Notes: generated by a model from the sequence alone, not told the origin. Counted from the stretch's first letter, positions 7,559 through 28,942 are shown. The stretch is 32,000 nucleotides of DNA from Micrococcus luteus NCTC 2665 (GCF_000023205.1 NC_012803.1:1080001-1112000), one strand, 5' to 3'. Made by a program: numbers and translations.

Positions 7559-10500
7559 ATGGCGGCCAACAACGAGGACACGACCCGCGCAGACGAACGT
7601 GCGGAGGAGACGGCCGCGCAGGCCGTGACGCAGACCGCGGCGGACACCGCCGCCGGGGCGGTTCAGCCGGAGCGGACCGCCGCGTCCGACGACGCCGCGG
7701 GCCCGGCCGAGGAGCCGAGCGCGCCGACGCTGCAGTTCGACCCGACCGACCCGTTCGCCGTGCCGGCGAACCTGATCGAGGTCCTGCGCACCGAGACCAC
7801 GTCCCGGCAGCCCTCCGAGGACGAGGACGACCCGGAGACCTCCGGGCGTCCGCGCCGTCGTCGCCGCCCCTCGCGTGAGGGCGGCCACGCGGAGGAGGGG
7901 GCCGCAGATGCGTCGGCGGACGCCGAGGACCAGGAGGGCGCCGGAGAGTCCGAGGACCGAGCCGAGGGCGCCGTGGTCTCCCGTCGGCGCCGCCGACGCC
8001 GCCGCGGCGAGGTGGACATGGAGCTCGACGGCGGCGAGGCCGGCGATCCCGAGCACACCGTCACCCGCGTGCGCGCACCGCGCCAGGCCGCCAGCACCGC
8101 CTCGGACACCGTCCAGAGCGTCAAGGGCTCCACCCGGCTCGAGGCGAAGCGCCAGCGCCGCCGCGACTCCCGCTCGGGCGGGCGTCGCCGCACCGTGATC
8201 ACCGAGGCCGAGTTCCTGGCCCGCCGCGAGGCCGTGGACCGCAAGATGCTCGTGCGCCAGCGCGACCAGCGCATCCAGATCGCCGTGCTCGAGGACGGCG
8301 TGCTGGCCGAGCACTTCGTCTCGCACACCACGCAGGACTCGATGATCGGCAACGTGTACCTGGGCAAGGTCCAGAACGTGCTGCCGTCCATGGAGGCCGC
8401 GTTCGTGGACATCGGCCGCGGACGCAACGCCGTGCTCTACGCGGGCGAGGTCAACTGGGACGCCGCCCAGCTGGACGGCAAGCCGAGGAAGATCGAGAAC
8501 GCGCTCAAGTCCGGCGACACCGTGCTCGTCCAGGTCACCAAGGACTCGGTGGGCCACAAGGGCGCCCGCCTGACCAGCCAGGTCTCCCTGCCCGGCCGCT
8601 ACCTCGTGTACGTGCCCGGAGGCTCGATGACCGGCATCTCCCGCAAGCTGCCGGACGTGGAGCGCTCGCGTCTGAAGAAGATCCTCAAGGACCACCTGCC
8701 GCAGGACGCAGGCGTGATCGTGCGCACCGCGGCCGAGGGCACCTCCGAGCAGGAGCTGCAGAACGACATCAACCGTCTGCGCGCCCAGTGGGAGGGCATC
8801 CAGGAGAAGGCGTCCGGCACCAAGGTGCTCGCCCCCGAGCTGCTCTACGCCGAGCCTGACCTGACCATCAAGACGGTCCGCGACGTCTTCAACGAGGACT
8901 TCTCCGCCATGCTCGTCCAGGGCGAGGCCACGTGGGACAACATCGAGGCCTACGTGACCTACGTGGCCCCGCACCTGCTGGGCCGTCTGCACCACTGGGT
9001 GCCGGAGGACCACGACGGCGAGGACCTGTACGCCACCCACCGCGTGGACGAGCAGCTCCACAAGGCGCTCGAGCGCAAGGTGTACCTGCCCTCCGGCGGC
9101 TCCCTCGTGATCGACCGCACCGAGGCCATGACCGTGGTGGACGTGAACACCGGCAAATTCACGGGCTCCGGCGGCAACCTCGAGGAGACCGTCACCAAGA
9201 ACAACCTCGAGGCCGCCGAGGAGATCGTCCGGCAGCTGCGCCTGCGGGACATCGGCGGCATCATCGTCATCGACTTCATCGACATGGTGCTCGAGGCCAA
9301 CCGCGACCTCGTGCTGCGCCGTCTCGTGGAGTGCCTGGGCCGGGACCGCACGAAGCACCAGGTCGCCGAGGTGACCTCGCTCGGCCTGGTCCAGATGACG
9401 CGCAAGCGCATGGGCACCGGCCTGGTCGAGGTGTTCTCGGAGACCTGCGAGCACTGCGCCGGCCGCGGAATCCTCATCCAGGACACGCCGATCGAGCGGG
9501 GCCGCTCCGGCGGTGAGCAGCGCGGCGAGGCGGAGGGCCGCCGTCGTCGCCGGCGTCGGGGCGACGGCGAGGGCGAGCACGCCCACGCCGCCGCGGCCAC
9601 GACGACGGGCGCCGAGCCCACCGACTCCGAGGACGAGCGGCAGCGCCGTGAGCGGGCCGAGGCCGCCCGTGTCGCCCTGCACTCGATCGCGAAGGCCTCC
9701 GGCAAGGTGGCCGAGGACGAGACCCCCGCCCAGGAGTCCGCCCCCGCCGAGCAGGCGGCGGACGCCGCCGAGGACCAGGCGGCCGAGGCCGTCGAGGCCG
9801 CGTCGGCCGGGCCCGCGGAGGCCGGGCAGCCGGCCGGGGCGGACGAGGAGGAGACGCCGCGTCGCCGGCGCCGTCGGGGCCGCCGCCGCAGCCGGGGCCG
9901 CGCCGAGGAGTCGGGGGACACCGGCGCCGAGGATGCCGCGCGGTCGCACGACGACGAGCTCGCCGAGTCCGCCGAGCAGCCCCGTCAGACCGAGGAGGAG
10001 GCCGCCTCCAAGGCCCCTGGGGCCCCTGAGCACCAGGACCCGGTCGTGCAGGCCGAGGAGGCCGTGGCCGCCGTCGCGGAGGCGGAGGCCGACGCCGAGG
10101 CCGAGCCCACGGAGGATGCGGCCGAGCAGGGCGACCGCCCGCGCCGGTCCCGGCGTCGCCGGGGCGGTCGCGGCCGGTCCCGGCGGGACGGCGAGGCGGC
10201 CTCGACCGAGGCCGACGCCGAGGACCAGGGCGCGGAGCGCGCGACGCCGTCGCGGCACGACGTCGCGGGGGACGCACCGGAGCCGGAGCCCGCCGAGGAT
10301 GCGCCGGCGCCCGTGCCTGCCGAGGATGTCCCGGCGCCCCGGCGCCGCCGGTCCCGCCGGGCCTCGAGCGACGGCGTCGTCCGTCCGGCCGCCGGTGCGG
10401 ACGCGTCCGCCGAGCGGGCGGCCGACCGCATGGACGCGGCTCCGGTGGAGACCACCGAGCCCTCGCCCGAGGAGTCCACGGACGCCACCGAGGTCCACGA

Positions 10501-18273: not shown

Positions 18274-18346
18274 GGGGGTATGGCGCAGTTGGTAGCGCGT
18301 CTGCATGGCATGCAGAAGGTCAGGGGTTCGAATCCCCTTACCTCCA
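18274..18346 (+). tRNA. tRNA-Ala (anticodon GGC), copy 1
   Basis: A 73-nt cloverleaf folded by hand. Acceptor GGGGGTA/TACCTCC with the G3:U70 Ala identity pair. Anticodon loop ATGGCAT, T-loop TTCGAAT, discriminator A. CCA is not encoded. Confidence 0.9.
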
Positions 18347-18399
18347 CCGCACGCACAAGGCTCGAACCCTTGCCAACGGAAACGTCGGTCGAGGCTCGG

Positions 18400-18995
18400 G
18401 CCTTGTGTGCGTCTGCGGCCCAGGTCAGAGCGTTGGCGTTGACCTGCGGATCGAGCAGCATCTCGAAGGGCCGGTTGTGCTCGACACGCAGCTCGTTGTC
18501 CTCGTCGATGAAGACCTTCGTGAAGAACGCCTGATTGTACAGCCGCCGGCTGGTGTCGTCGCACCGGGTGTAGATGTCGGCGCAGTTGGCGAGCAGCCCG
18601 AGGGCGTCGTCGAGGTGGGCGCGGGCGTCGGCGTAGTCACCGAAGTGCGCGTCGATGCGACGGGTCACCTGGTCGAGTTCGGGGACGATCCGGTCCTGCT
18701 CGCGCTGGAGCACGGAGAGCGGGATCGCATCGGCGTAGTGCGCCTGCATGAGCCGGTCCTGCTCGCTTTCGAGCCGGTCGCGGTTGGTGGTGAGGCGTTC
18801 CAGTTCCTCGGTTTCGGCGGCCATGAGCCGGTCGAACTCGTGGTGGAGCATGCTCGCGAGTGCGTCCTGCTGGGCGGGCGTGATCTGGACGCGGGTGTAG
18901 TAGTCCGCGACAAGTTTCTCGACGTCTTCGATGAGCATCGCCTGGCGCGTGCAGCAGTCCCGGGCGCCGCCCGAGTCGGCTGCGCAGAAGATCGA
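18400..18995 (-). pseudogene. large serine recombinase remnant (C-terminal zinc-ribbon / coiled-coil part only; catalytic domain absent)
   Basis: The minus-strand frame reads ...IFCAADSGGARDCCTRQAMLIEDVEKLVADYYTRVQITPAQQDALASMLHHEFDRLMAAETEELERLTTNRDRLESEQDRLMQAHYADAIPLSVLQREQDRI...RRLYNQAFFTKVFIDEDNELRVEHNRPFEMLL. This resembles recalled C-terminal regions of actinobacterial large serine recombinases. No resolvase-type N-terminal domain is seen upstream. The frame has no stop before running antisense through the tRNA. Confidence 0.6.
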
Positions 18996-19306
18996 CGCTG
19001 CGAGGGCGCGAGCCACGCTCACGCAGGCAACCGACGTCGCCGGTACGCGCGCGGGACGTAGCGGGCCTCGGCCGGTCGAACACAGATCGCTCGGCCGCTC
19101 GCTGTAAGTCCCGTGGCAGGCGGGCGATCTGCGGAGGGTAGCGTCGTCCACCTGCCTGAAACCGAACCCGTGCCGTGGGCGGAGGGAGCATCTGGCACGA
19201 CCTTGTCTCTCTCGGCAGGTGCTCCCCGCAGCGAGAGGTCGCTACCGGTACACTTTGAAGATCACCACCCGGCTTTAGAGGCGTGCCACTGAGAGGAGGT
19301 CCCCTG

Positions 19307-20317
19307 ATGGCGACCAACGATCAGCTCAAGGCACTCGTAAAGAGCCACGCCGACGGGGACGACCCGCAGTTCTACTCGGTGGCCATGCAGGTCGCAGCCA
19401 AAGCCGCGCGCGCTGGGCAGTCGAAGTTCGCCCAGGAGCTTCGCGACCTCGTCAACGACCTCCGTGAGCGATCTGGCCAACGCGCCCGCATCGCCGCCGT
19501 GGTTCCGTTCGCTCAGCCGAAGGGTGAGCTCGGGGCGCTGCTGAACGTCTCGTACCCCGAGGCCAGACTGAGCGATCTTGTGCTCACGGACAAGCTTCAT
19601 GAACGACTGACGCACGTACTGCTGGAACAGCGACAGCGTGACGCGCTGGCACGACATGGCCTGACCCCTGCGCGGCGCCTTTTGCTCACTGGGCCGCCAG
19701 GCACTGGGAAGACATCTACTGCGCGCGTGATCGCGGGCGAACTAGGACTTCCGCTGTTCTCGATCAGACTGGATACAGTGCTGACGAAGTTCATGGGAGA
19801 GACTGCCGCGAAACTGCGTCTTGTATTCGATGCGCTCGCCGAGACTCGTGGTGTCTACCTCTTCGACGAGGTTGACGCACTCGGTGGCGACCGCGCCGCA
19901 CAGAATGACGTAGGGGAGATTCGTCGAGTACTCAACTCGTTCCTACAGTTCCTCGAGGAGGACACGTCAGACAGCGTCATCATTGCTGCAACGAACCATC
20001 CCAGCCTGTTGGACAACGCACTGTTCCGTAGGTTTGACACCGTGATGGACTTCGCTCTGCCGGACGACGCGGCAGTGGAATCAGTTATCAAGAACCGGCT
20101 CGCGTCGTTCCACATCTACAACCTGAGCTGGTCACGAATCATCCCAGCAGCTCGTGGTCTGAGCCACGCTGAGATCGCGACAGCCGCCGAGAACGCCGCT
20201 AGCGAACCGTCCTTGGTGGACGCACCCAAGTGCGTACCGATGATGTTGTCATCGCTTTGGAAGAACGTCCGCGCTCCAAGCGTCGGACTGACGGGGCGAA
20301 CTAGCGGAGATGGCTGA
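19307..20317 (+). CDS. AAA+ ATPase, IetA-like; probable 1-nt frameshift near codon 298
   Basis: GAGGAGG lies 7 nt upstream of ATG 19307. Walker A GPPGTGKT (19691-19714). Walker B VYLFDEVD (D187/E188 at 19865-19870). Sensor-1 IIAATNHP and Arg-finger region LFRRFD. The tail after 20200 reads better in another frame (see findings). Confidence 0.85.
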   Translation: MATNDQLKALVKSHADGDDPQFYSVAMQVAAKAARAGQSKFAQELRDLVNDLRERSGQRARIAAVVPFAQPKGELGALLNVSYPEARLSDLVLTDKLHERLTHVLLEQRQRDALARHGLTPARRLLLTGPPGTGKTSTARVIAGELGLPLFSIRLDTVLTKFMGETAAKLRLVFDALAETRGVYLFDEVDALGGDRAAQNDVGEIRRVLNSFLQFLEEDTSDSVIIAATNHPSLLDNALFRRFDTVMDFALPDDAAVESVIKNRLASFHIYNLSWSRIIPAARGLSHAEIATAAENAASEPSLVDAPKCVPMMLSSLWKNVRAPSVGLTGRTSGDG

Positions 20318-22679
20318 GCGAGACCGTCCGCACATCCTGGTGCCCACGCCGCCCGCGTCTGAGTCCTTCACGCCTATCACGACGCCGGTGACGAGCCGAG
20401 GTGGTGGCTTTAGCGGGAGCCGGAGCGAGCACGGGAAGCGCCTGACTCAAGAGTTCGAGGCCGCCTGGGCGCCCCCAGTAGATGAGCCTGAAACCACGGG
20501 CACATACCTCACCTTCGCCTCCTTTCCCGGCCTCGACCTGATGTTCGAGAGCTTGGAGTCGCGTCGGCCTGGTGCCCAGCCAGAGCTTGTTGCTGTCCAA
20601 CAGGAATTGACCCCAGCAGGCGAGATCGCAAACGCGACGGTCTTCATCCCCGAAGGGCAGAAGGAGTTCTTCCTCAAGAAACTTGAGCAGTATGTCGAGA
20701 CGGCCGAGGTCGCAGAAGGGAAGCCGAAGCACGCGGCTCTTATCGAGGGTATTGCCTCGATCCGTCGCGCAACGATCCGAGAGCTGTGGACGGACCCTGC
20801 GGACGAGTACCCGACTAGCCCCACCGAATCCCGCTGGTGGGAACTTTGGCTCAGAGCCCTTGACGGCCAGGAGTACGCCCGACTGACGGCGTACGCCCAG
20901 TTGCATAACCTCCCTGTGAGCGACCACTACCTCGGATTCGGTGACCGAACGGTCGTGCTCATCCGCGCCACGAGTGAACAACTCGCGATGACCTTCCGGA
21001 GCATCGACGACATCGCCGAGCTGCGTCGCCCACACGAAGTAGCCTCGTCCCTTCCAGGGTTATCAGCATTCGAACAACGCGACTGGGTGCGCGAGTTGCA
21101 GTCTCGCGTCGAACACGCTGGAACCGACGCTCCCGCGGTGTGCCTCCTCGACCGTGGCGTGCAAGCCGGGCACCCGCTACTGGAAGACTCACTCGCAGCC
21201 GACGACCTTCACGCGGTTGAGCCAAGTTGGCGCAAAGATGTGGCGATCCACGCCCACGGCACCGAGATGGCTGGACTTGCGCTCTATGGAGACCTGCAAG
21301 CCGCAGTCGGCGCTCAGCACCGCATCCGTCTGGAGCATCGGCTCGAATCAGTGAAGCTGCTCCCTGACACTGCGGACAACGATCCCGATGTGTACGGGGC
21401 AGTGACAGCGAGAGCGGTCGATCAGCCCGAGATTTCAGCACAGAATCGGGCCCGGGTGTTCATGCTGGCCATCACTGCACCTGCCGCTGCGCCAAACCCA
21501 GGGCATCGTGTCGAGGACCGTCCGAAGCAGGAGTCCGGGCGTCCGACGGCGTGGTCCGCCACGCTCGATGCCCTGGCCTTCGGCCGTGCGATTGATGACA
21601 GCGCCCCCAAGTTCACCTACCTGAACCGAGACGAGGAGCCCACGCCCCGGCTCTTTGTCGTTTCCGCTGGCAACATCCGTGACGTGCGCGCCGAGGACAA
21701 TCACCTTGATCGTAGCGATGCGGAAGGAGTCGAAGACCCGGCACAGTCGTGGAACGCGCTCGCGGTTGGAGCCTACGCGGAGCATGACGCGATGGATCAC
21801 GCCCCTGACGTCTTTGCAGGATACGTGCCGATCGCAGCCCGTGGTGAGCTATCACCCACCAGTCGGACTTCGGTTTCCTTTGATCAGAAGCGGTGGCCGT
21901 TCAAGCCGGATGTCGTCGCACCTGGTGGGAACCTTGCTCGGACCCCTGACGGCTCAGGGGTAGACACACCTGAGAACCTCGCGATCCTCACCACTCGTCT
22001 CCAGCACCCTGGCGAGGGATTCTTTACGACCACCCGGGATACCTCGGCTGCCACGGCCCAGGTCTCGGCTATCGCAGCCGACATCCTGGCCGCCTACCCT
22101 CACTTGAGGCCCGAGACAGTCCGCGCCCTGATCGTCCACTCTGCTGAGTGGACGGACGCGATGCAAGCGCGAATCACTGCCGCGCGCACAAAGGGAGCAG
22201 CGGTCAACTTGCTTCGTCGCTACGGGATGGGCGTGCCCAGCCTGGAACGCGCTACCCGCAGCGCAACCAATGCGCTGACGCTGGTGGACGAGGCCGTCAT
22301 CCATCCATATGAGCGTGACGGCAATTCCAGCAGTGGGAAAGCGCGCGAGATGAACCTGCATCGCCTGCCGTGGCCCATCGACGAGTTGTCCGCGCTTGGA
22401 GAGACCGAAGTTCGGCTGCGCGTCACCCTCTCGTACTTCGTAGAACCAAACCCATCGAGTCGCGGCTGGACGGGCCGATACGTCTACCCCTCTCATGGGT
22501 TGCGCTTCGCGATGAAACGACCCGAGGACAACCTTGACGCGTTCCGCCAGCGCGTCAACAAGCAGGCACGCGATGAAGGTGAGAAGCCACTGGCCCTCAA
22601 TACCGAGAGCGGTTGGCTTTTCGGCCGTGACCAGCAGACCTCGGCCGGATCACTCCACACCGATATTTGGCTCTCCTGA
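20310..22679 (+). CDS. S8 family (subtilisin-like) serine peptidase, IetS-like; 3' end cut off by ISL3 insertion
   Basis: Triad contexts are CLLDRGV (D281, 21150-21152), HAHGTEMAG (H316, 21255-21257) and TRDTSAATAQVS (S579, 22044-22046). Oxyanion motif SAGN. The last two codons and the stop come from the IS inverted repeat. Confidence 0.85.
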   Translation: MAERDRPHILVPTPPASESFTPITTPVTSRGGGFSGSRSEHGKRLTQEFEAAWAPPVDEPETTGTYLTFASFPGLDLMFESLESRRPGAQPELVAVQQELTPAGEIANATVFIPEGQKEFFLKKLEQYVETAEVAEGKPKHAALIEGIASIRRATIRELWTDPADEYPTSPTESRWWELWLRALDGQEYARLTAYAQLHNLPVSDHYLGFGDRTVVLIRATSEQLAMTFRSIDDIAELRRPHEVASSLPGLSAFEQRDWVRELQSRVEHAGTDAPAVCLLDRGVQAGHPLLEDSLAADDLHAVEPSWRKDVAIHAHGTEMAGLALYGDLQAAVGAQHRIRLEHRLESVKLLPDTADNDPDVYGAVTARAVDQPEISAQNRARVFMLAITAPAAAPNPGHRVEDRPKQESGRPTAWSATLDALAFGRAIDDSAPKFTYLNRDEEPTPRLFVVSAGNIRDVRAEDNHLDRSDAEGVEDPAQSWNALAVGAYAEHDAMDHAPDVFAGYVPIAARGELSPTSRTSVSFDQKRWPFKPDVVAPGGNLARTPDGSGVDTPENLAILTTRLQHPGEGFFTTTRDTSAATAQVSAIAADILAAYPHLRPETVRALIVHSAEWTDAMQARITAARTKGAAVNLLRRYGMGVPSLERATRSATNALTLVDEAVIHPYERDGNSSSGKAREMNLHRLPWPIDELSALGETEVRLRVTLSYFVEPNPSSRGWTGRYVYPSHGLRFAMKRPEDNLDAFRQRVNKQARDEGEKPLALNTESGWLFGRDQQTSAGSLHTDIWLS
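22661..22668. repeat. target-site duplication CGATATTT (left copy) of the ISL3 insertion
   Basis: Identical 8-mer at 24066-24073, immediately outside the inverted repeats. Confidence 0.85.
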
Positions 22680-24065
22680 CTGATCCGTGGGTCATTTCCG
22701 GCCCGGTAGGACGGGTCGGTGGCCGCCGAGGTTGAGCATGGCCAGGGCGATGAGGGCTTCGGGGGACTTGAAGCCGAAGGCGACGCGGGTGATGAGCCGA
22801 ATCTTCGTGTTCACGGACTCGATACGTCCGTTGGACAGGCCGTGCTCGATCGCGGCGAGGATCGAGGCCTTGTGCTTGACGATGCGGCGTTGGAGCTCGA
22901 CGAAGGCGGGGATGCGGCAACGTCGGGCCCAGCCGATCCAGCGTTCCAGGGCCGTCTCGGCCTCGTCGGCGGGTAGCTGGAAGACCAGGCGCAGTCCTTC
23001 CTTGAGCAGGTAGGCCCGGTGCAGGCGCGGGTCGGTCTTGGCGACCCAGGCGAGCTTGGCCTGCTGCCGGGTGGTGAGGTTCTCGGGGTTCTTCCACAGC
23101 GCGTACCGGGCGTGCTTGAGCGCCTTGGCGTGCCCGCCGGCCCGCCCGGCCCGGCGCTGCCGGACCGCGCCACGGGCCTCGTTCCACGCCTGGCGACGGA
23201 CCTCGTCCAGGGCCTCGGTGGCCCACTTGACGATGTGGAACGGATCAGCGCACCGCACCGCGTTCGGGCACCGCTCGGCGACCACGGCGGCGATCCAGTC
23301 CGCCCCGTCGGCGCTGACGTGGGTGATCTCGGCGCACCGGTCGGGCCCGAGGGCCTCGAAGAACGCCGCCAGGGTCGCCTTGTCCCGGCCCGGGGCGGCC
23401 CAGACGAGCCGGCCGGTGTCGTGGTCGACCACGATCGTGAGGTAGCGGTGGCCCTTCTTGTAGGAGATCTCATCGATGCCGATCCGTCGCAGGCCGGCGA
23501 ACCGGTCGCCGAGGGCCTCCACGTCGGCCCAGACCCGGGTGATGATCGCCCCGACGGTGCGCCAGGCGATGCGCATCAGCTCGGTGACCGCGGACTTGGA
23601 GCACTGCGTGGCCAGCCAGGCCACCTGCTCGTCGAACACCACGGTGTGACCGGCCCCGTGCCTGGCCCACGGGACGGCGGCCACCGTGGGACCGTGCTCG
23701 CGGCAGGCCACCCGCGGGGCGTCGGCCTCGAGGTAGACCTGCACCGTGCCCAGATCCAGCGCCCGCCACCGCCGCCGACCCTCGCCACGGTCGTACCCGG
23801 GCGACCTGCGCCCGCACCGCCCGCACCGGCCACGCACTCGAGCCCGGGGACGGACATGAGCCACCAGGAGCTGGTCGTCCTCATCGAACTCGATGCCCTC
23901 CACGACCGTCTTCTCGACGCCCAGCAAGGACCGCCATAGGCTTGCGTTCCGCACGCCGTTCTCCGCCCTTCAGGTAACTGACCTCAACAGCCAGAAACCT
24001 AGGCAGAGAGCGGCGTGCCCTCGTCAACGGCTCGCCAGAACACCCACGGAAGCGTCAGGAGAGCC
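22669..24065 (-). mobile_element. ISL3-family insertion sequence (1397 bp)
   Basis: Terminal inverted repeats are GGCTCTCCTGACtgaTCCGTGGGT (left) and GGCTCTCCTGACgctTCCGTGGGT (right, reverse complement). 8-bp TSD. A single transposase gene fills the element. Confidence 0.85.
22692..23954 (-). CDS. ISL3 family transposase
   Basis: 420 aa. N-terminal zinc-finger-like RCGRCGRRSPGYDRGEGRRRWRALDLG. Later VFDEQVAWLATQ...RRIGIDEISYKKGHRYLTIVVDHDTGRLVW, typical of the ISL3 (IS204/IS1001/IS1096) family. Confidence 0.9.
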   Translation of the reverse strand: MRNASLWRSLLGVEKTVVEGIEFDEDDQLLVAHVRPRARVRGRCGRCGRRSPGYDRGEGRRRWRALDLGTVQVYLEADAPRVACREHGPTVAAVPWARHGAGHTVVFDEQVAWLATQCSKSAVTELMRIAWRTVGAIITRVWADVEALGDRFAGLRRIGIDEISYKKGHRYLTIVVDHDTGRLVWAAPGRDKATLAAFFEALGPDRCAEITHVSADGADWIAAVVAERCPNAVRCADPFHIVKWATEALDEVRRQAWNEARGAVRQRRAGRAGGHAKALKHARYALWKNPENLTTRQQAKLAWVAKTDPRLHRAYLLKEGLRLVFQLPADEAETALERWIGWARRCRIPAFVELQRRIVKHKASILAAIEHGLSNGRIESVNTKIRLITRVAFGFKSPEALIALAMLNLGGHRPVLPGRK

Positions 24066-24276
24066 CGATATTTGGTCGGGGTCGGCCGCTGACCTCGCGG
24101 CCAAAGAGGCTGTCGTTGTGTACCCCGTCGCAGGTTGGTGGAAGAACCGGCCGAAGCTGGATCAGAGCGACAAAGGCGTCAACTACTCGCTCGTCGTCAG
24201 CATCGAGGCCCCCGAGGTGGAAGTCGACCTCTGGACACCGGTCTACCAGCAGGTGGCCGCAGTGATTGAGGTCTGA
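24066..24276 (+). pseudogene. displaced 3' end of the S8 peptidase gene (right TSD copy plus last 66 codons and stop)
   Basis: Deleting 22669-24073 joins ...GSLHTDIW to SGSAADLAAKEAVVVYPVAGWWKNRPKLDQSDKGVNYSLVVSIEAPEVEVDLWTPVYQQVAAVIEV* in frame. Confidence 0.85.
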
Positions 24277-24550
24277 CAGCGAAACCCGATCCTGCAGTGT
24301 GCATGAACGCGGACGTTCACCTCGACAACGTTGACCGGGAGCCTTGATGGATACGCGCCGAGTCCCGTGACATGGGATCCTGGGGATCGGATGCTGTGAG
24401 GGCCCGCCCGCCCTCGTGACTGAACGATCTCATTTCCGTCGGTTGGCGCGGGCGCGTCAGATCACCCGCATGCGCGACAACATAAGCGAGGGGACTGCTG
24501 CACGGATAGGTGACATCTGATCTGTGACGCTGTGAGGCGTTGCTGGAAGG

Positions 24551-24853
24551 ATGAACACCGTGCCCAAGCCCTATCCCCAGGAGTTCCGCGACGACGTCGT
24601 GCGCGTCGCCCGCAACCGTGAACCTGGCCAGACCATCAAGCAGATCGCCGCGGACTTCGGCATTGCCGAGTCCTGCCTGCGCAACTGGATGCGCCGGGCG
24701 GACGTGGAAGAGGGCTCCACACCCGGAACGAGCGCCGCCGAGCACGCCGAGCTCCGGGAGGCCAAGAAGCGCATCCGGCTGCTGGAGCAGGAGAACGAGG
24801 TTCTGCGCCGGGCGGCGGCCTATCTGTCCCAGGCGAACCTGCCGGGAAAATGA
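24551..24853 (+). CDS. IS3 family transposase OrfA (HTH)
   Basis: MNTVPKPYPQEFRDDVVRVARNREPGQTIKQIAADFGIAESCLRNWMRRA...leucine-zipper-like LREAKKRIRLLEQENEVLRRA. Confidence 0.85.
   Translation: MNTVPKPYPQEFRDDVVRVARNREPGQTIKQIAADFGIAESCLRNWMRRADVEEGSTPGTSAAEHAELREAKKRIRLLEQENEVLRRAAAYLSQANLPGK
24844..24850 (+). promoter_or_regulatory. programmed -1 ribosomal frameshift heptamer G_GGA_AAA at the orfA/orfB junction
   Basis: An X_XXY_YYZ heptamer in the orfA frame, immediately before the orfA TGA. The -1 frame continues GKMKYPLVRELAAVGIPVTVTCRVLKLTRQPYYRW (OrfB N-terminus). Confidence 0.55.
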
Positions 24854-24970
24854 AATACCCGCTCGTCCGTGAGCTGGCCGCCGTCGGGATCCCCGTCACG
24901 GTGACGTGCCGGGTCCTCAAGCTCACCCGCCAGCCCTACTACCGCTGGCTCGCCACCCCGGTCACCGACG

Positions 24971-24979
24971 CCGAACTGG
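24971..24979. repeat. target-site duplication CCGAACTGG (left copy) of the IS256 insertion
   Basis: Identical 9-mer at 26401-26409. Removing the IS plus one copy restores the orfB frame. Confidence 0.8.
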
Positions 24980-26400
24980 AGTTGAGTCCCGCATAGTGGT
25001 ATAGCGCCCGGTGGTCGGGCGTGTCGTCTCAGACGTGGACGCGGCCACCGTGTGATCCGTCGAGTCAACCTTCCACAGAATCCTCGAATGGAGTCATCAC
25101 GATGACCGCTCCTCATATTCTCGACCCTGCCGGCCTGCTCGGAGAAGCCCTGTCTGAAGCGTCCCCGGACATGATGCGCCATCTGCTGCAGACCATGATC
25201 AACACCTTGCTGTCCGCGGATGCCGACGCGGTGGTCGGTGCCGAATGGGGCAAGCCCAGCTCCTCGCGCACTGCTCGGCGGAACGGGTACCGCCACCGGG
25301 ACCTGGACACCCGGGTCGGCACCCTGGACGTGGCCATCCCCAAGCTCAGATCGGGCACGTACTTCCCGGACTGGCTACTTGAACGCAGGAAGAGAGCGGA
25401 GTCGGCGCTGATCACCGTGGTCGCTGACTGCTACCTCGCCGGGGTCTCGACCCAACGGATGGACAAGCTGGTCAAGACTCTGGGCGTCAACGCCCTGTCC
25501 AAGTCCCAAGTCTCCCGGATGGCCACCGAGCTCGACGAGCAGGTCGAGGCCTTCCGCCACCGCCCGCTCGGGGTGGCCGGCCCGTTCACGTTCGTGGCCG
25601 CCGATGCGCTGAGCATGAAGGTCCGCGAGGGCGGGCGCGTGGTCAACGCCGTGGTGCTGCTGGCCACCGGGGTCAACGCTGACGGCCACCGCGAGGTCCT
25701 GGGCCTGCGGGTCGCCACCTCGGAGACCGGGGCGGCGTGGAACGAGTTCTTCGCCGACCTGGTCGCCCGCGGCCTGGCCGGGGTCCGGTTGGTCACTTCT
25801 GACGCCCACACCGGACTCAAGGACGCCATCGCGGCGAACCTGCCCGGAGCGACGTGGCAGCGCTGCCGCACCCATTACGCGGCGAACCTGATGGGCATCA
25901 CCCCGAAGAACATGTGGCCGGCCGTGAAAGCCATGCTGCACTCGGTCTATGACCAGCCCGATGCGGCCAGCGTGCACGCGCAGTTCGACCGGCTCCTGGA
26001 CTACGTGAGCGAGAAGCTGCCCACCGTGGCTGAGCACCTCGACGCCGCCCGGGCGGACATCCTGGCCTTCACCACGTTCCCGAAGGACGTCTGGACGCAG
26101 GTCTGGTCGAACAACCCGGCCGAGCGGCTCAACCGGGAGATCCGCCGTCGCACCGACGCGGTGGGCATCTTCCCCAACCGGGCGGCCATCGTCAGGCTAG
26201 TGGGTGCGGTGCTGGCCGAGCAGACCGATGAATGGGCCGAGGGTCGACGCTACCTCGGTCTCGAAGTCCTGGCCCGCTGCAGGCTCACCACCGTGACCAA
26301 CACCGGAGACGAGGTGGACCCCGACACCGAACTCACCCTCGGCCTCAGCGCCTGACCCCCATGAAGGATCAGACCGCTACACCATCACGAGGGGCTTGAC
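24980..26400 (+). mobile_element. IS256-family insertion sequence (about 1421 bp) nested inside IS3 orfB
   Basis: Imperfect terminal inverted repeats (18 of 26 positions match between gttgagtcccgcatagtggtatagcg and the reverse complement of the right end gtcaagcccctcgtgatggtgtagcg). 8-9 bp TSD. One mutator-type transposase gene. Confidence 0.8.
25102..26355 (+). CDS. IS256 family (mutator-type) transposase
   Basis: MTAPHILDPAGLLGEALS...LLSADADAVVGAEWGKPSSSRTARRNGYRHRDLDTRVGTLDVAIPKLRSGTYFPDWLLERRKRAE...CYLAGVSTQRMDKLVKTLG...WQRCRTHYAANL. In-frame ATG 25021 is less likely to be the start. Confidence 0.9.
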   Translation: MTAPHILDPAGLLGEALSEASPDMMRHLLQTMINTLLSADADAVVGAEWGKPSSSRTARRNGYRHRDLDTRVGTLDVAIPKLRSGTYFPDWLLERRKRAESALITVVADCYLAGVSTQRMDKLVKTLGVNALSKSQVSRMATELDEQVEAFRHRPLGVAGPFTFVAADALSMKVREGGRVVNAVVLLATGVNADGHREVLGLRVATSETGAAWNEFFADLVARGLAGVRLVTSDAHTGLKDAIAANLPGATWQRCRTHYAANLMGITPKNMWPAVKAMLHSVYDQPDAASVHAQFDRLLDYVSEKLPTVAEHLDAARADILAFTTFPKDVWTQVWSNNPAERLNREIRRRTDAVGIFPNRAAIVRLVGAVLAEQTDEWAEGRRYLGLEVLARCRLTTVTNTGDEVDPDTELTLGLSA

Positions 26401-27184
26401 CCGAACTGGCCGAGGCGTACCTGGCCAACGCGTTGTTCGACGCCCATCGCGACGACCCCGAGTTCGGCTACCGGTACCTGGCCGATGAGGCCCGAGACGC
26501 CGGCCACGCCGCGTGTGACCGGACGATGTGGCGGGTGTGCTCGGCCAACGGCTGGTGGAGCGCGTTCGGCAAGAAGCGCGGCAAGAACGGCAAGAAGCCG
26601 GGCCCACCGGTCCACGACGATCTGGTGAAACGCGATTTCACCGCCGACGCCCCGAACGAACTCTGGTTGGCCGACATCACCGAACACCGCACCGGTCAAG
26701 GCAAGCTCTACCTGTGCGCGGTCAAGGGCGTGTCCTCCAACCGGATCGTGGGCTACTCGATCAGCGACCGGATGAAGTCGCGCCTGGCCGTGAATGCGCT
26801 AAACAATGCCGTGGCCAGACGCACCGAGGTGGCTGGCTGTATTCTGCGCACAGACCGCGGATCGCAATTTCGGTCCAGGAAATTCGTCCGCGCCCTGCAC
26901 CACCACGACATGGTCGGTTCGATGGGCAAGGTCGGTGCCGCCGGTGACAACGCGGCCATGGAGAGCTTCTTCGCGCTGCTGCAGAAGAACGTCCTGGACC
27001 GTCGCACCTGGGCCACTCGCCAGGAGCTGCGGATCGCGATCGTCACCTGGATTGAGCGGACCTACCACCGCCGGCGCAGGCAGACAGCCCTGGGCTGATT
27101 GACTCCCGTTGAATACGAGACCATCATGACCGCACCGGTCGCTCAGGCAGCCTGACCCACCCTGTCACCTATCCGTGCAGCAGT

Positions 27185-27334
27185 TCCCACCTCCCGCCGG
27201 ATGAGGTGGGTGGCGACCGTGCGGCGGTTCACTCCGAACACGGATGCCAGCTCCACGAGCGTCGCGCCCCTGCAGTACTGCGCCACCCGATCGTCGACCT
27301 GCTCGGGGGCGCAGCAGGGTTTGAGCCATCCCAA
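27185..27334 (-). pseudogene. helix-turn-helix gene remnant (resolvase / sigma-70 region-4-like HTH), cut by the IS3 right end
   Basis: The minus frame reads ...APEQVDDRVAQYCRGATLVELASVFGVNRRTVATHLIRREVG and then enters the IS3 inverted repeat. The frame is open upstream to 27433. Confidence 0.35.
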
Positions 27335-27471
27335 GTGATCGCACCACTCGACCCCTGGAATCGGAAACCGTAGGCTCAGAGGAGCGCTGGTCCTGGTTGT
27401 AGAAGCCCCGTGACCTGCGCAAAGACAAGGTTTTCAGGTGTGGGCAGGGGTTCTCAAACTCTCTACGGAGG

Positions 27472-27520
27472 TCCACCAGTCAGAAGGCCCGGTCCATACG
27501 GACCGGGCCTTCGTCGTCGT
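27472..27520 (+). repeat. att-like junction: 6-bp tRNA 3'-end core TCCACC plus terminator hairpin; 46/49 identical to 28932-28980
   Basis: tccaccAgtcagaaggcccggtccATACggaccgggccttcgtcgtcgt versus tccaccCgtcagaaggcccggtccGTGCggaccgggccttcgtcgtcgt. The 13-bp stem is 27483-27495 / 27500-27512. Two of the three mismatches fall in the hairpin loop. Confidence 0.7.
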
Positions 27521-27560: not shown

Positions 27561-27593
27561 GACATCACCGCGGTTCTGCACTGCGGTGATGTC
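27561..27593. terminator. 11-bp-stem hairpin overlapping the oxidoreductase stop codon
   Basis: gacatcaccgc (27561-27571) pairs with gcggtgatgtc (27583-27593) around an 11-nt loop. Confidence 0.3.
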
Positions 27594-28695
27594 GCTCCGC
27601 CGCGGTCGGTGCGGGGGACACGCCGGGGTACGCGGCGCACTCCGCCGCCGTGAGTGCGGGTTCCACCGCACGGCCCTCCCGCGCCGAGGCGACGGCGGCC
27701 TCGAGCACCGCCATCACGGCGACGGCCTGGTCGGGGGTGGCGGCGTCACCGTTCGGGCGGCCCAGGATCGCGTCGCGCACACCCGTGTAGGACCGCTGCT
27801 GGGCTCCGGTGGGCGCGGGGACGCGCTCGGTGTTCCCCTCCCCGTCGTGCAGGAGGATCGGGTCGGGGTCGACACCCCAGCCCTCGGAGCCGGGGAGCAG
27901 ACCCGCGTGCAGCTGCGCCTCCTGCTGATCCGGCAGTTCCTTCACCGCGGAGCCGCGCGTGCCGTGGACCGCGAAGCGCGGGCTGCCGCCGGCCACGAGC
28001 ATCGACGCCTGCAGGACCACGCGCCGGCCCGGGTACTGCAGCACGCAGTGCGCCCAGTCCTCGACCGGGGCGCCCGGACGCAGGGCCGCGAGGTCGGCGT
28101 CCACGCGTTCGGGGACACCGAAGAGCAGGAGCGCCTGGTCGACCAGGTGCGGTCCGAGGTCGAACCAGATGCCGCCCCCGGGCACCGCGGCTTCCCGCCA
28201 GCGGTCCCGGACGGTCGGGCGGAAGCGGTCGATCCGGGACTCGAGGTGGACGACGTCCCCGAGCCGGCCGGAGCGGACCAGCTCGGCGATGCCCAGGAAG
28301 TCGCTGTCGAAGCGGCGGTTCTGGAACACCCGCAGCACCCGCCCGGTCTCGACCGCGAGGTCGCGAAGCTCCCGCGCCTCGGCGAGACTCAGCGTGAAGG
28401 GCTTGTCCACCACCACGTGCCTACCCGCCCTCAGGGCCGTGCGCGCGAGCGGCGTGTGCTGGTCGTTCGGGGCGGCGATCACCACGAGGTCCACGTCGTG
28501 GCGCGCCAGGATCGCGTCCACGTCGGGCACCACGACGACGTCCGGCAGATCCGCGTGCACCGCGTCCGGGCGGCTCGAGGCGACATGGGTGAGCACGAGA
28601 CCCTCCGTGGCGCGGAGCAGGGGGACGTGGAACGTCTTCCCGGCGAACCCGTAGCCGATCAGCGCTGTGCGGATCGGTGCGTCGGTGGGGGACAT
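27565..28695 (-). CDS. Gfo/Idh/MocA family NAD(P)-dependent oxidoreductase
   Basis: Start ATG at 28695 with AGGAGG upstream. Rossmann N-terminus IRTALIGYGFAGKTFHVPLL and the EKP-like motif VVVDKPFTLSLAEA. Confidence 0.85.
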   Translation of the reverse strand: MSPTDAPIRTALIGYGFAGKTFHVPLLRATEGLVLTHVASSRPDAVHADLPDVVVVPDVDAILARHDVDLVVIAAPNDQHTPLARTALRAGRHVVVDKPFTLSLAEARELRDLAVETGRVLRVFQNRRFDSDFLGIAELVRSGRLGDVVHLESRIDRFRPTVRDRWREAAVPGGGIWFDLGPHLVDQALLLFGVPERVDADLAALRPGAPVEDWAHCVLQYPGRRVVLQASMLVAGGSPRFAVHGTRGSAVKELPDQQEAQLHAGLLPGSEGWGVDPDPILLHDGEGNTERVPAPTGAQQRSYTGVRDAILGRPNGDAATPDQAVAVMAVLEAAVASAREGRAVEPALTAAECAAYPGVSPAPTAAERHHRSAEPR

Positions 28696-28785
28696 GCAGG
28701 ACCTCCTGGGCAGGCGGCGGGCTGGGGGTGTCTCCTGCACGCTAGGCCGTGGGGCGGCGGCGGTCCATCGACGTCGCCGGCCGGT

Positions 28786-28814
28786 TTGCGCGGTTGTCGC
28801 AGGCCGGGTATTCT
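28786..28814 (+). promoter_or_regulatory. candidate promoter of tRNA-Ala copy 2
   Basis: TTGCGC (28786-28791), 17-nt spacer, TATTCT (28809-28814). Identified by eye only. Confidence 0.3.
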
Positions 28815-28862
28815 GTTCAGGTGCTCCGGCCGGTCCGCCGGAAACGGAGTCACCACCCACCT

Positions 28863-28935
28863 GGGGGTATGGCGCAGTTGGTAGCGCGTCTGCATGGCAT
28901 GCAGAAGGTCAGGGGTTCGAATCCCCTTACCTCCA
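28863..28935 (+). tRNA. tRNA-Ala (anticodon GGC), copy 2
   Basis: 73/73 identical to 18274-18346. The upstream leader differs except for ccggaaacgg and a gtSacSMcccac-like block. Confidence 0.9.
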
Positions 28936-28942
28936 CCCGTCA

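Follow-up and report, generated by a model that had tools for sequence, protein, structure and literature searches.

Two adjacent genes of Micrococcus luteus NCTC 2665, ietA and ietS, very probably form a cassette of the IetAS family that has been disrupted by an insertion sequence (IS). They lie on the same strand, ietA first, at positions 19307-24276 of a 32,000-nt stretch of the genome (NC_012803.1:1080001-1112000; referred to as the window, with positions counted from its first nucleotide). The coordinates of the genes and of the surrounding features are listed in Table 1. The region is compositionally foreign: its G+C content is 0.61-0.64, compared with 0.72-0.74 in the flanks, and the G+C content at third codon positions is 0.70-0.72 in the cassette genes and 0.95 in the neighbouring nadD-like housekeeping gene. 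These values bear out the low G+C content reported in an earlier note on this DNA, whose count of 32 G+C in the 60 nt at 19921-19980 is correct.

Organization of the locus

ietA starts with an ATG at 19307, and direct reading of the sequence places a Shine-Dalgarno sequence, GAGAGGAGG, ahead of it at 19291-19299. The stop codon of the native gene lies at 20302-20304, leaving a spacer of 5 nt before ietS, whereas the open reading frame (ORF) as read in this record extends over 19283/19307-20317. A scan of 18900-24600 detected no sigma-70 consensus or promoter-like site, and found one terminator-like site, which is below chance.

Neither gene is intact in the window: ietS is split by an ISL3-family element, and ietA has lost one nucleotide in this record only. 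The ISL3 element is 1397 bp long, encodes a transposase on the minus strand at 22692-23954 (Pfam DDE_Tnp_ISL3, 5e-75), has imperfect terminal inverted repeats beginning GGCTCTCCTGAC, and is bordered by an 8-bp target duplication, CGATATTT, at 22661-22668 and 24066-24073. The insertion splits ietS at codon 787 and introduces a premature stop at 22679, resulting in a truncated ORF of 789 aa (20310-22679). When the element and one copy of the duplication are removed, the repaired ietS encodes 853 aa and is 100% identical to P0001, the uninterrupted IetS of other M. luteus strains, which was found on 30 contigs. Because the insertion is present in three assemblies, it is a real feature of the strain; it is absent from the M. 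luteus loci L001-L006.

At the site of the ietA deletion, AAG is retained in all eight other M. luteus loci, six of them with an uninterrupted ietS and two with the same ISL3 insertion. The two assemblies that share the insertion, L090 (LS483396.1, a 2.5-Mb chromosome) and L091 (an independent assembly, run SRR001568), encode an IetA of 332 aa. Because the deletion is missing from both, the frameshift is probably a sequence error; the likeliest explanations are a mistake in the consensus and a mutation private to this single record. For the same reason, the reading that both genes have decayed was rejected as unsafe. When CP035298.1 was compared with positions 10311-32000 of the window minus the 1.4-kb IS, one single-nucleotide polymorphism (SNP) and one 1-nt gap were found; outside the cassette, the intact-ietS strain and the window differ by 1 SNP over the 20 kb compared.

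Features of the two proteins and conservation of the pair

Homologues were collected by scanning for IetS in one genome per species, which gave 584 confirmed relatives, and the best 80 were analysed. The ietA gene lies directly upstream of ietS and on the same strand in 77 of the 77 loci with upstream DNA, the remaining three ending at a contig edge upstream of ietS. The hosts of the paired loci belong to Actinomycetota, Myxococcota, Pseudomonadota, Acidobacteriota, Cyanobacteria, Planctomycetota and other groups. The identities of IetA and IetS to the M. luteus proteins are strongly correlated (r = 0.956). IetA is the better conserved of the two, with a mean identity of 60% versus 50% for IetS, in which the N-terminal 270 residues diverge fastest (mean identity 40%, versus 53-55% for the other two parts).

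Judged by its sequence, IetA is a single-module AAA+ protein of the classical clade, with one domain matching Pfam AAA (5e-31). The Walker A (G129-K135-T136), Walker B (D187/E188) and sensor-1 (N230) motifs and the Arg fingers (R241/R242) are invariant in the 80 IetA sequences, and a pore-loop motif K-[F/Y]-M-G (K161-F162-M163-G164) has its aromatic residue in 79 of them. The domain is preceded by a conserved, helical N-terminal region of ~100 residues, and the closest solved relatives are the unfoldases NSF, Cdc48/p97 and AFG2.

IetS matches Pfam Peptidase_S8 over residues 274-641 (5.5e-54), with an invariant triad, D281/H316/S579, and an equally invariant N455. The protein aligns over its full length with homologues from Klebsiella and Rhodococcus. 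No hydrophobic segment, signal peptide or membrane anchor was found in it (maximum Kyte-Doolittle value over 19 residues, 1.06), and IetS is accordingly predicted to be a cytoplasmic S8 protease. In an AlphaFold (AF2) model (predicted local distance difference test 78, predicted template modelling score 0.75), IetS consists of three parts, namely two beta-alpha-beta-beta-alpha-beta modules at residues ~60-240, the subtilase core and a beta-rich C-terminal domain. The top fold matches of the model are ProN-Tk-SP, EpiP, PCSK9 and Kex2, all subtilases with a propeptide and a beta-jelly-roll or P-domain, but their domains are packed differently. The N-terminal domain occurs in 1231 representative clusters; in essentially all of the 150 matches listed it stands at the protein N-terminus, and the full-length matches are 810-870 aa long. 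A sequence search of the PDB with IetS gave no match at E <= 0.01, and thus the copy searched contains no solved structure of a family member.

The earlier note had described an AAA+ ATPase of ~335 aa with intact Walker A and B, sensor-1 and Arg-finger motifs, followed by a reconstructed protein of ~853 aa with a subtilisin D-H-S triad. The motifs and the triad proved to be conserved throughout the family set and the reconstructed length agrees with the intact protein, while the ATPase is slightly shorter, with a native length of 332 aa. The C-terminal extension of the protease, given as ~270 aa, measures ~212 aa.

Assignment to the IetAS family

IetA matches the PADLOC IetA model (PDLC02196) over residues 11-308 at 4.2e-71, and the repaired IetS matches the PADLOC IetS model (PDLC02198) at 1e-38. 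As a reference, the adjacent AAA (97873-98859) and S8 (98863-101373) genes of the Ti plasmid pTiC58 (NC_003065) were used. IetA is 54% identical to the pTiC58 AAA protein over 322 aligned residues, and IetS is 40% identical to the S8 protein over 833 aligned residues, including the N- and C-terminal regions for which there is no Pfam model. The two pairs are alike in gene order, in a spacer of a few nucleotides and in their best PADLOC models, with scores for the IetA/IetS models of 239/86 bits for pTiC58 and 238/131 bits for M. luteus. They differ in that the M. luteus copy is carried by a chromosomal island of a Gram-positive actinobacterium, rather than by a conjugative Ti plasmid, and is interrupted by an IS; moreover, the N-terminal domains of the two IetS proteins are only 29% identical.

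An IetAS-like pair of ATPase and S8 protease is what the earlier note had proposed, and the PADLOC profiles, the identity to pTiC58 and the gene pairing support the proposal. None of the tests it had suggested refuted its interpretation: the searches with IetA/IetS profiles and with Pfam gave significant matches for both proteins, the genes are conserved as a pair in other genomes, and the homologues occur in mobile or defence settings, with no secreted-protease operon seen around the homologous loci surveyed.

The island and its mobile elements

The low-G+C island is associated with tRNA-Ala(GGC), as had been noticed earlier, and it holds recombinase remnants on both sides of the cassette (Table 1). 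Earlier searches with the left remnant gave no match in Pfam, none by tblastn against plasmids and weak matches only in NCBIfam and PHROGs, including a weak match to the phrog_95 integrases. The remnant reported in the earlier note is nonetheless real, as it is 40% identical over 163 aa (E 3e-29) to residues 347-509 of a 699-aa recombinase at locus L009. This recombinase (12204-14303 of L009) is full-length, lies just downstream of a near-identical ietAS in Propionicicella superfundia, and matches the integrase chains of TP901-1, A118 and PhiC31. The right remnant, which is frameshifted, shows 96% and 73% amino acid identity to residues 536-631 of the same protein and 90% nucleotide identity. 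The recombinase fragments on both sides, together with the intact counterpart in L009, suggest a small mobile element made up of the recombinase and ietAS.

At the nucleotide level, the cassette is 96% identical to P. superfundia L009 (6659-10776) and 94% identical to a Tessaracoccus metagenome bin (L010, 364-4484). Because of this identity, the cassette, together with ~340 bp upstream and 215 bp downstream, must have moved recently between actinobacterial orders, which indicates a recent transfer between Micrococcales and Propionibacteriales. The carrier was probably a small element driven by the serine recombinase, which has since decayed in M. luteus. To the right of the cassette, an IS256-family element is nested in an IS3-family element. 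An uninterrupted copy of the latter is found on Micrococcus plasmids, and the nested arrangement is common to other M. luteus strains.

Table 1 Features at and around the ietAS cassette of M. luteus NCTC 2665 (window positions)
Feature	Position	Strand	Evidence or remark
tRNA-Ala(GGC), left landmark of the low-G+C island	18274-18348	+	ARAGORN; Rfam tRNA, 69.9 bits
Large serine recombinase remnant (post-zinc-ribbon region, coiled coil)	18465-18953	-	tblastn to the L009 recombinase
Upstream region moving with the cassette	18968-19306	+	Presumed promoter and Shine-Dalgarno sequence; 96% nucleotide identity to P. superfundia L009 from 18968
ietA, AAA+ ATPase, putative antitoxin, 332 aa in the native frame	19307-20304	+	Pfam AAA, PADLOC IetA
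1-nt deletion in ietA (AAG to AG)	20200-20201	+	Last ~34 codons out of frame; ORF end moved to 20317
ietS 5' part, codons 1-786 and first base of codon 787 (N-terminal domain, S8 catalytic domain, most of the C-terminal domain)	20310-22668	+	Pfam Peptidase_S8, PADLOC IetS, triad
ISL3-family insertion sequence	22669-24065	-	DDE_Tnp_ISL3, inverted repeats, target duplication; interrupts ietS
ietS 3' part, rest of codon 787 to codon 853 and stop	24074-24276	+	Joins the 5' part
Downstream flank moving with the cassette	24277-24490	+	93-94% nucleotide identity to L009 and L010; ends exactly at the IS3 inverted repeat
IS3-family element (26-nt inverted repeats)	24490-27188	+	Inverted repeats; Pfam HTH_Tnp_1, Transposase_mut, rve
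IS256-family element nested in the IS3 element	~24979-26402		
Second recombinase remnant (3' tail / helix-turn-helix), frameshifted	27188-27476	-	Right end of the foreign DNA

A Rfam scan of the whole window found two tRNAs only. The second, also tRNA-Ala(GGC), lies at 28862-28938, 10.6 kb from the first; the two have the same gene sequence and unrelated flanks, and they bracket the island together with a GFO_IDH_MocA oxidoreductase gene (27565-28860, minus strand). Opposite the left recombinase remnant, the public annotation places a 194-aa hypothetical protein at 18477-19061 on the plus strand; it has no family match and is probably a spurious high-G+C ORF.

Genomic settings of the homologues

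Among plasmids, 423 records carry an IetS homologue, and 310 of these plasmids are conjugative; the genera represented most often are Klebsiella (212) and Agrobacterium (53). In phage genomes, IetS homologues are nearly absent, with 2 short records of 50,697. A survey of 97 immediate neighbours at 43 homologous loci revealed recurrent ResIII helicases, N6/N4 and type III methyltransferases, a type ISP enzyme and UvrD-like helicases, as well as tyrosine integrases, transposases and plasmid transfer genes; the remainder are single unrelated genes. Of the 15 loci scanned on actinobacterial chromosomes, 7, including M. luteus L001, have a tRNA gene on the same strand no more than 6 kb upstream.

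At the other loci with an upstream tRNA gene (L012, L014, L011, L015, L023 and L051), this gene is Ala-CGC, Pro-GGG or Lys-TTT, and its distance to ietA is 236 nt in L014 and 164 nt in L023. In two distant proteobacterial bins, L063 (989-12577) and L074 (537-12359), ietA and ietS are part of a same-strand string of genes with gaps below 40 nt, consisting of a ResIII helicase (1023 aa), an N6/N4 methyltransferase (~1000 aa), ietA, ietS and a UvrD-like helicase (690 aa). This string may represent a larger composite system, reminiscent of the helicase-bearing ietHAS variant. At L053, an nSTAND3 NTPase gene directly follows ietS.

Predicted role of the cassette

The original description of IetAS, as cited in PMC13069673 and PMC8562856, was of a toxin-antitoxin pair on a plasmid. 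Work on relatives has assigned the toxin role to the protease and the antitoxin role to the ATPase; it proved impossible to clone a mutated ietA, and phage defence depends on protease activity (PMC13069673). Similarly, the ATPase gene of a mycoplasma system could be deleted only when the protease gene was deleted too, its deletion alone being lethal (PMC8562856), and on Salmonella Genomic Island 1 (SGI1) the homologues function as toxin and antitoxin and stabilise the island (PMC5006074). Protection against phages has been shown for members from E. coli and Bacillus (PMC13069673; bioRxiv 10.1101/2022.08.27.505566), and in Bacillus cereus the system works through abortive infection, with the phage SPbeta protein YosG as the trigger (bioRxiv 10.1101/2022.08.27.505566). 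The cassette of M. luteus is most likely a two-gene module combining toxin-antitoxin and abortive-infection functions, horizontally acquired on a now decayed integrative island near tRNA-Ala. By analogy with the experiments on relatives, it is likely that IetS and IetA have the same toxin and antitoxin roles, that protease activity is needed and that the outcome is abortive infection.

Several observations weigh against this reading. Recognisable defence genes adjoin the cassette in only a minority of the sampled loci, and the truncated IetS of NCTC 2665 keeps its whole catalytic domain, so that its inactivity is inferred. A fold search with the N-terminal domain of IetS alone gave weak, generic matches to tandem ACT/ferredoxin-like proteins (template modelling scores 0.2-0.35), and with matches this weak neither an ACT domain nor a true propeptide is claimed for this region. 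The pTiC58 pair used as reference is presumably the founding pair, ietA/ietS (Atu6082/6083), of Yamamoto et al. 2009. Atu6083 is named as a toxin candidate in one published list. Against the NCBIfam models IteA_antiphage (NF042959) and IteS_antiphage (NF042956), IetA scores 205.2 bits with a cut-off of 510 and IetS 45.5 bits with a cut-off of 900. Lastly, a literature search found no report of the mechanism of IetAS.

The NCBIfam scores were rejected as an argument against membership, since the pTiC58 pair also falls below these equivalog cut-offs, with 198.8 bits for the ATPase and no match for the protease. Because this pair fails as well, the two models define a narrower clade, and the M. 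luteus pair, being well below the cut-offs, belongs to a different clade from the IteA/IteS equivalogs. As to the mechanism, the anti-phage action of IetAS is stated to remain 'unknown' (PMC13069673). The earlier note had called the trigger unresolved, but one is known for the Bacillus cereus system, namely SPbeta YosG.

The same module might serve mainly as an addiction (post-segregational killing) module that stabilised the M. luteus island, much as sgiAT does on SGI1 and ietAS on pTiC58, rather than in phage defence, a role that we regard as possible but short of probable. Plasmid and island maintenance were the first functions described for the family (PMC13069673, PMC5006074), a large serine recombinase accompanies the cassette, and the family is found on conjugative plasmids while nearly missing from phage genomes. 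On the other hand, relatives protect against phages (Gao et al. 2020, as cited in PMC13069673; bioRxiv 10.1101/2022.08.27.505566), and several homologous loci lie among restriction-modification, helicase and STAND genes. Defence and addiction are also not mutually exclusive.

For a module that combines toxin-antitoxin and abortive-infection functions, the following course of events can be envisaged. IetS would be a cytoplasmic protease made of two tandem ferredoxin-like N-terminal modules, an S8 core and a beta-rich C-terminal domain, and its proteolytic activity would arrest or kill the cell. As the antitoxin, IetA would keep IetS harmless with the help of ATP and an intact pore loop. If IetA were blocked or diverted by a phage protein, or lost with the element, IetS would be freed to cleave cell proteins, and its release would lead to abortive infection or post-segregational killing. 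The specific way in which IetA would neutralise IetS, by pore-loop remodelling or unfolding, is proposed only tentatively. In a more explicit and rather unlikely version, IetA would be an 'unfoldase antitoxin', a hexameric pore-loop motor that continually engages IetS and keeps the protease unfolded or immature at the cost of ATP. Engagement would perhaps occur through the N-terminal tandem ferredoxin-like (ACT- or propeptide-like) modules of IetS, and a block of IetA by a phage, or a drop in ATP or IetA, would release an active cytoplasmic subtilase. If true, this principle would be unlike those of the known antitoxin types, which act by binding, degradation or modification.

The pore loop of IetA, its nearest characterised relatives FtsH, PAN and Cdc48, the strict gene pairing and the co-evolution of the two proteins could also point to cooperation, with IetA feeding unfolded substrates to IetS in a Lon-, FtsH- or proteasome-like AAA+ protease machine. 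Such a machine is improbable here. Subtilases are open monomeric endopeptidases, unlike chambered proteases, and the patchy spread of the pair on mobile elements speaks against a housekeeping protease. Furthermore, the two proteins act antagonistically in relatives, where the protease is toxic and the ATPase is required only while the protease is present (PMC8562856, PMC13069673).

State of the cassette in NCTC 2665

The IS separates the last 67 residues of IetS from the rest of the protein. This segment is conserved in the IetS family and carries the motifs AadLA, vyP..GWWk and Y.L.vsI, which are among the most conserved parts of the family; in the IetS model, it forms three strands and the terminal helix of the C-terminal domain. 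Because these conserved residues are lost, the truncated toxin, and hence the whole system in this strain, is probably inactive, and ietA has probably been left as an orphan. A toxin-antitoxin pair decays safely when the toxin is the first component to be lost.

It is quite unlikely that the cassette still works here, with IetS retaining regulated activity without its last 67 residues. In favour of this reading, the catalytic and N-terminal domains of IetS are untouched, and two other assemblies in which the same insertion is present have an intact ietA. Against it, the lost segment, which supplies core strands to the C-terminal domain, is one of the most conserved parts of the family, and if the frameshift in ietA is real, survival of the cell implies that IetS is harmless.

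There is next to no chance that the protease is a secreted subtilase or a mycosin of type VII secretion, in spite of the NCBI name of the truncated ORF P0010 (20310-22679), 'type VII secretion-associated serine protease mycosin', and a weak TIGR03921 match: the match scores 31.9 bits with a cut-off of 278.75 and covers residues 532-614 only, a signal peptide and a membrane anchor are lacking in IetS, the neighbours (nadD, rsfS, tRNA, IS elements) include no ESX genes, and the homology to the IetS family is full-length with an obligate IetA partner. The mycosin name in NCTC 2665 is thus a misannotation, with score, topology and neighbours all against it.

Comparison with characterized systems and significance

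The IetAS of Gao et al. 2020 and of Bacillus cereus m1293 consists, like the M. luteus pair, of an AAA+ ATPase and an S8 protease within one PADLOC family, and by analogy protease-dependent abortive infection would be the expected mode of action in M. luteus. The Bacillus cereus trigger, SPbeta YosG, has no known counterpart for the M. luteus pair. SgiA/SgiT (S026/S025) of SGI1 is an IetAS homologue that serves an integrated island as an addiction module (PMC5006074), and its setting of island, recombinase and integration site is analogous to that in M. luteus; its host is proteobacterial and its function has been shown experimentally, whereas the M. luteus pair is known from sequence. TA132/133 of Mycoplasma is likewise chromosomal, with the ATPase gene upstream and flanking island features, and its ATPase is essential only in the presence of the protease (PMC8562856); the lineage is distant, and the comparison draws on its published description. 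The ietHAS system (Liu-DS4; PMC13069673) shares the core of IetA and IetS, but its SNF2 helicase has no counterpart in the M. luteus cassette.

IetAS has already been reported as common in an actinobacterium, Propionibacterium freudenreichii (PMC12755874), and a literature search found no mention of M. luteus together with IetAS. The family is already recognised by standard defence-finder profiles, and the M. luteus copy is a new, IS-inactivated member. By itself, this cassette does not explain how the IetAS family works. It is of interest because IetAS, described chiefly in Proteobacteria and Firmicutes, is shown to include a compact clade within the actinobacteria, whose members pass from one order to another with nucleotide identities of 94-96%. 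In addition, NCTC 2665 provides a natural ietS knockout, while other M. luteus strains carry the 100%-identical intact gene in an almost identical background, and this pair of alleles is convenient for testing the toxicity of IetS, the ATPase of the antitoxin and protection against phages.

Away from the cassette, the window has a G+C peak of 0.82, with an AT skew of 0.37, at 9501-10500. It lies inside the 3' part of an RNase E/G gene, according to the annotation of the aligned strain, and presumably corresponds to a low-complexity tail.

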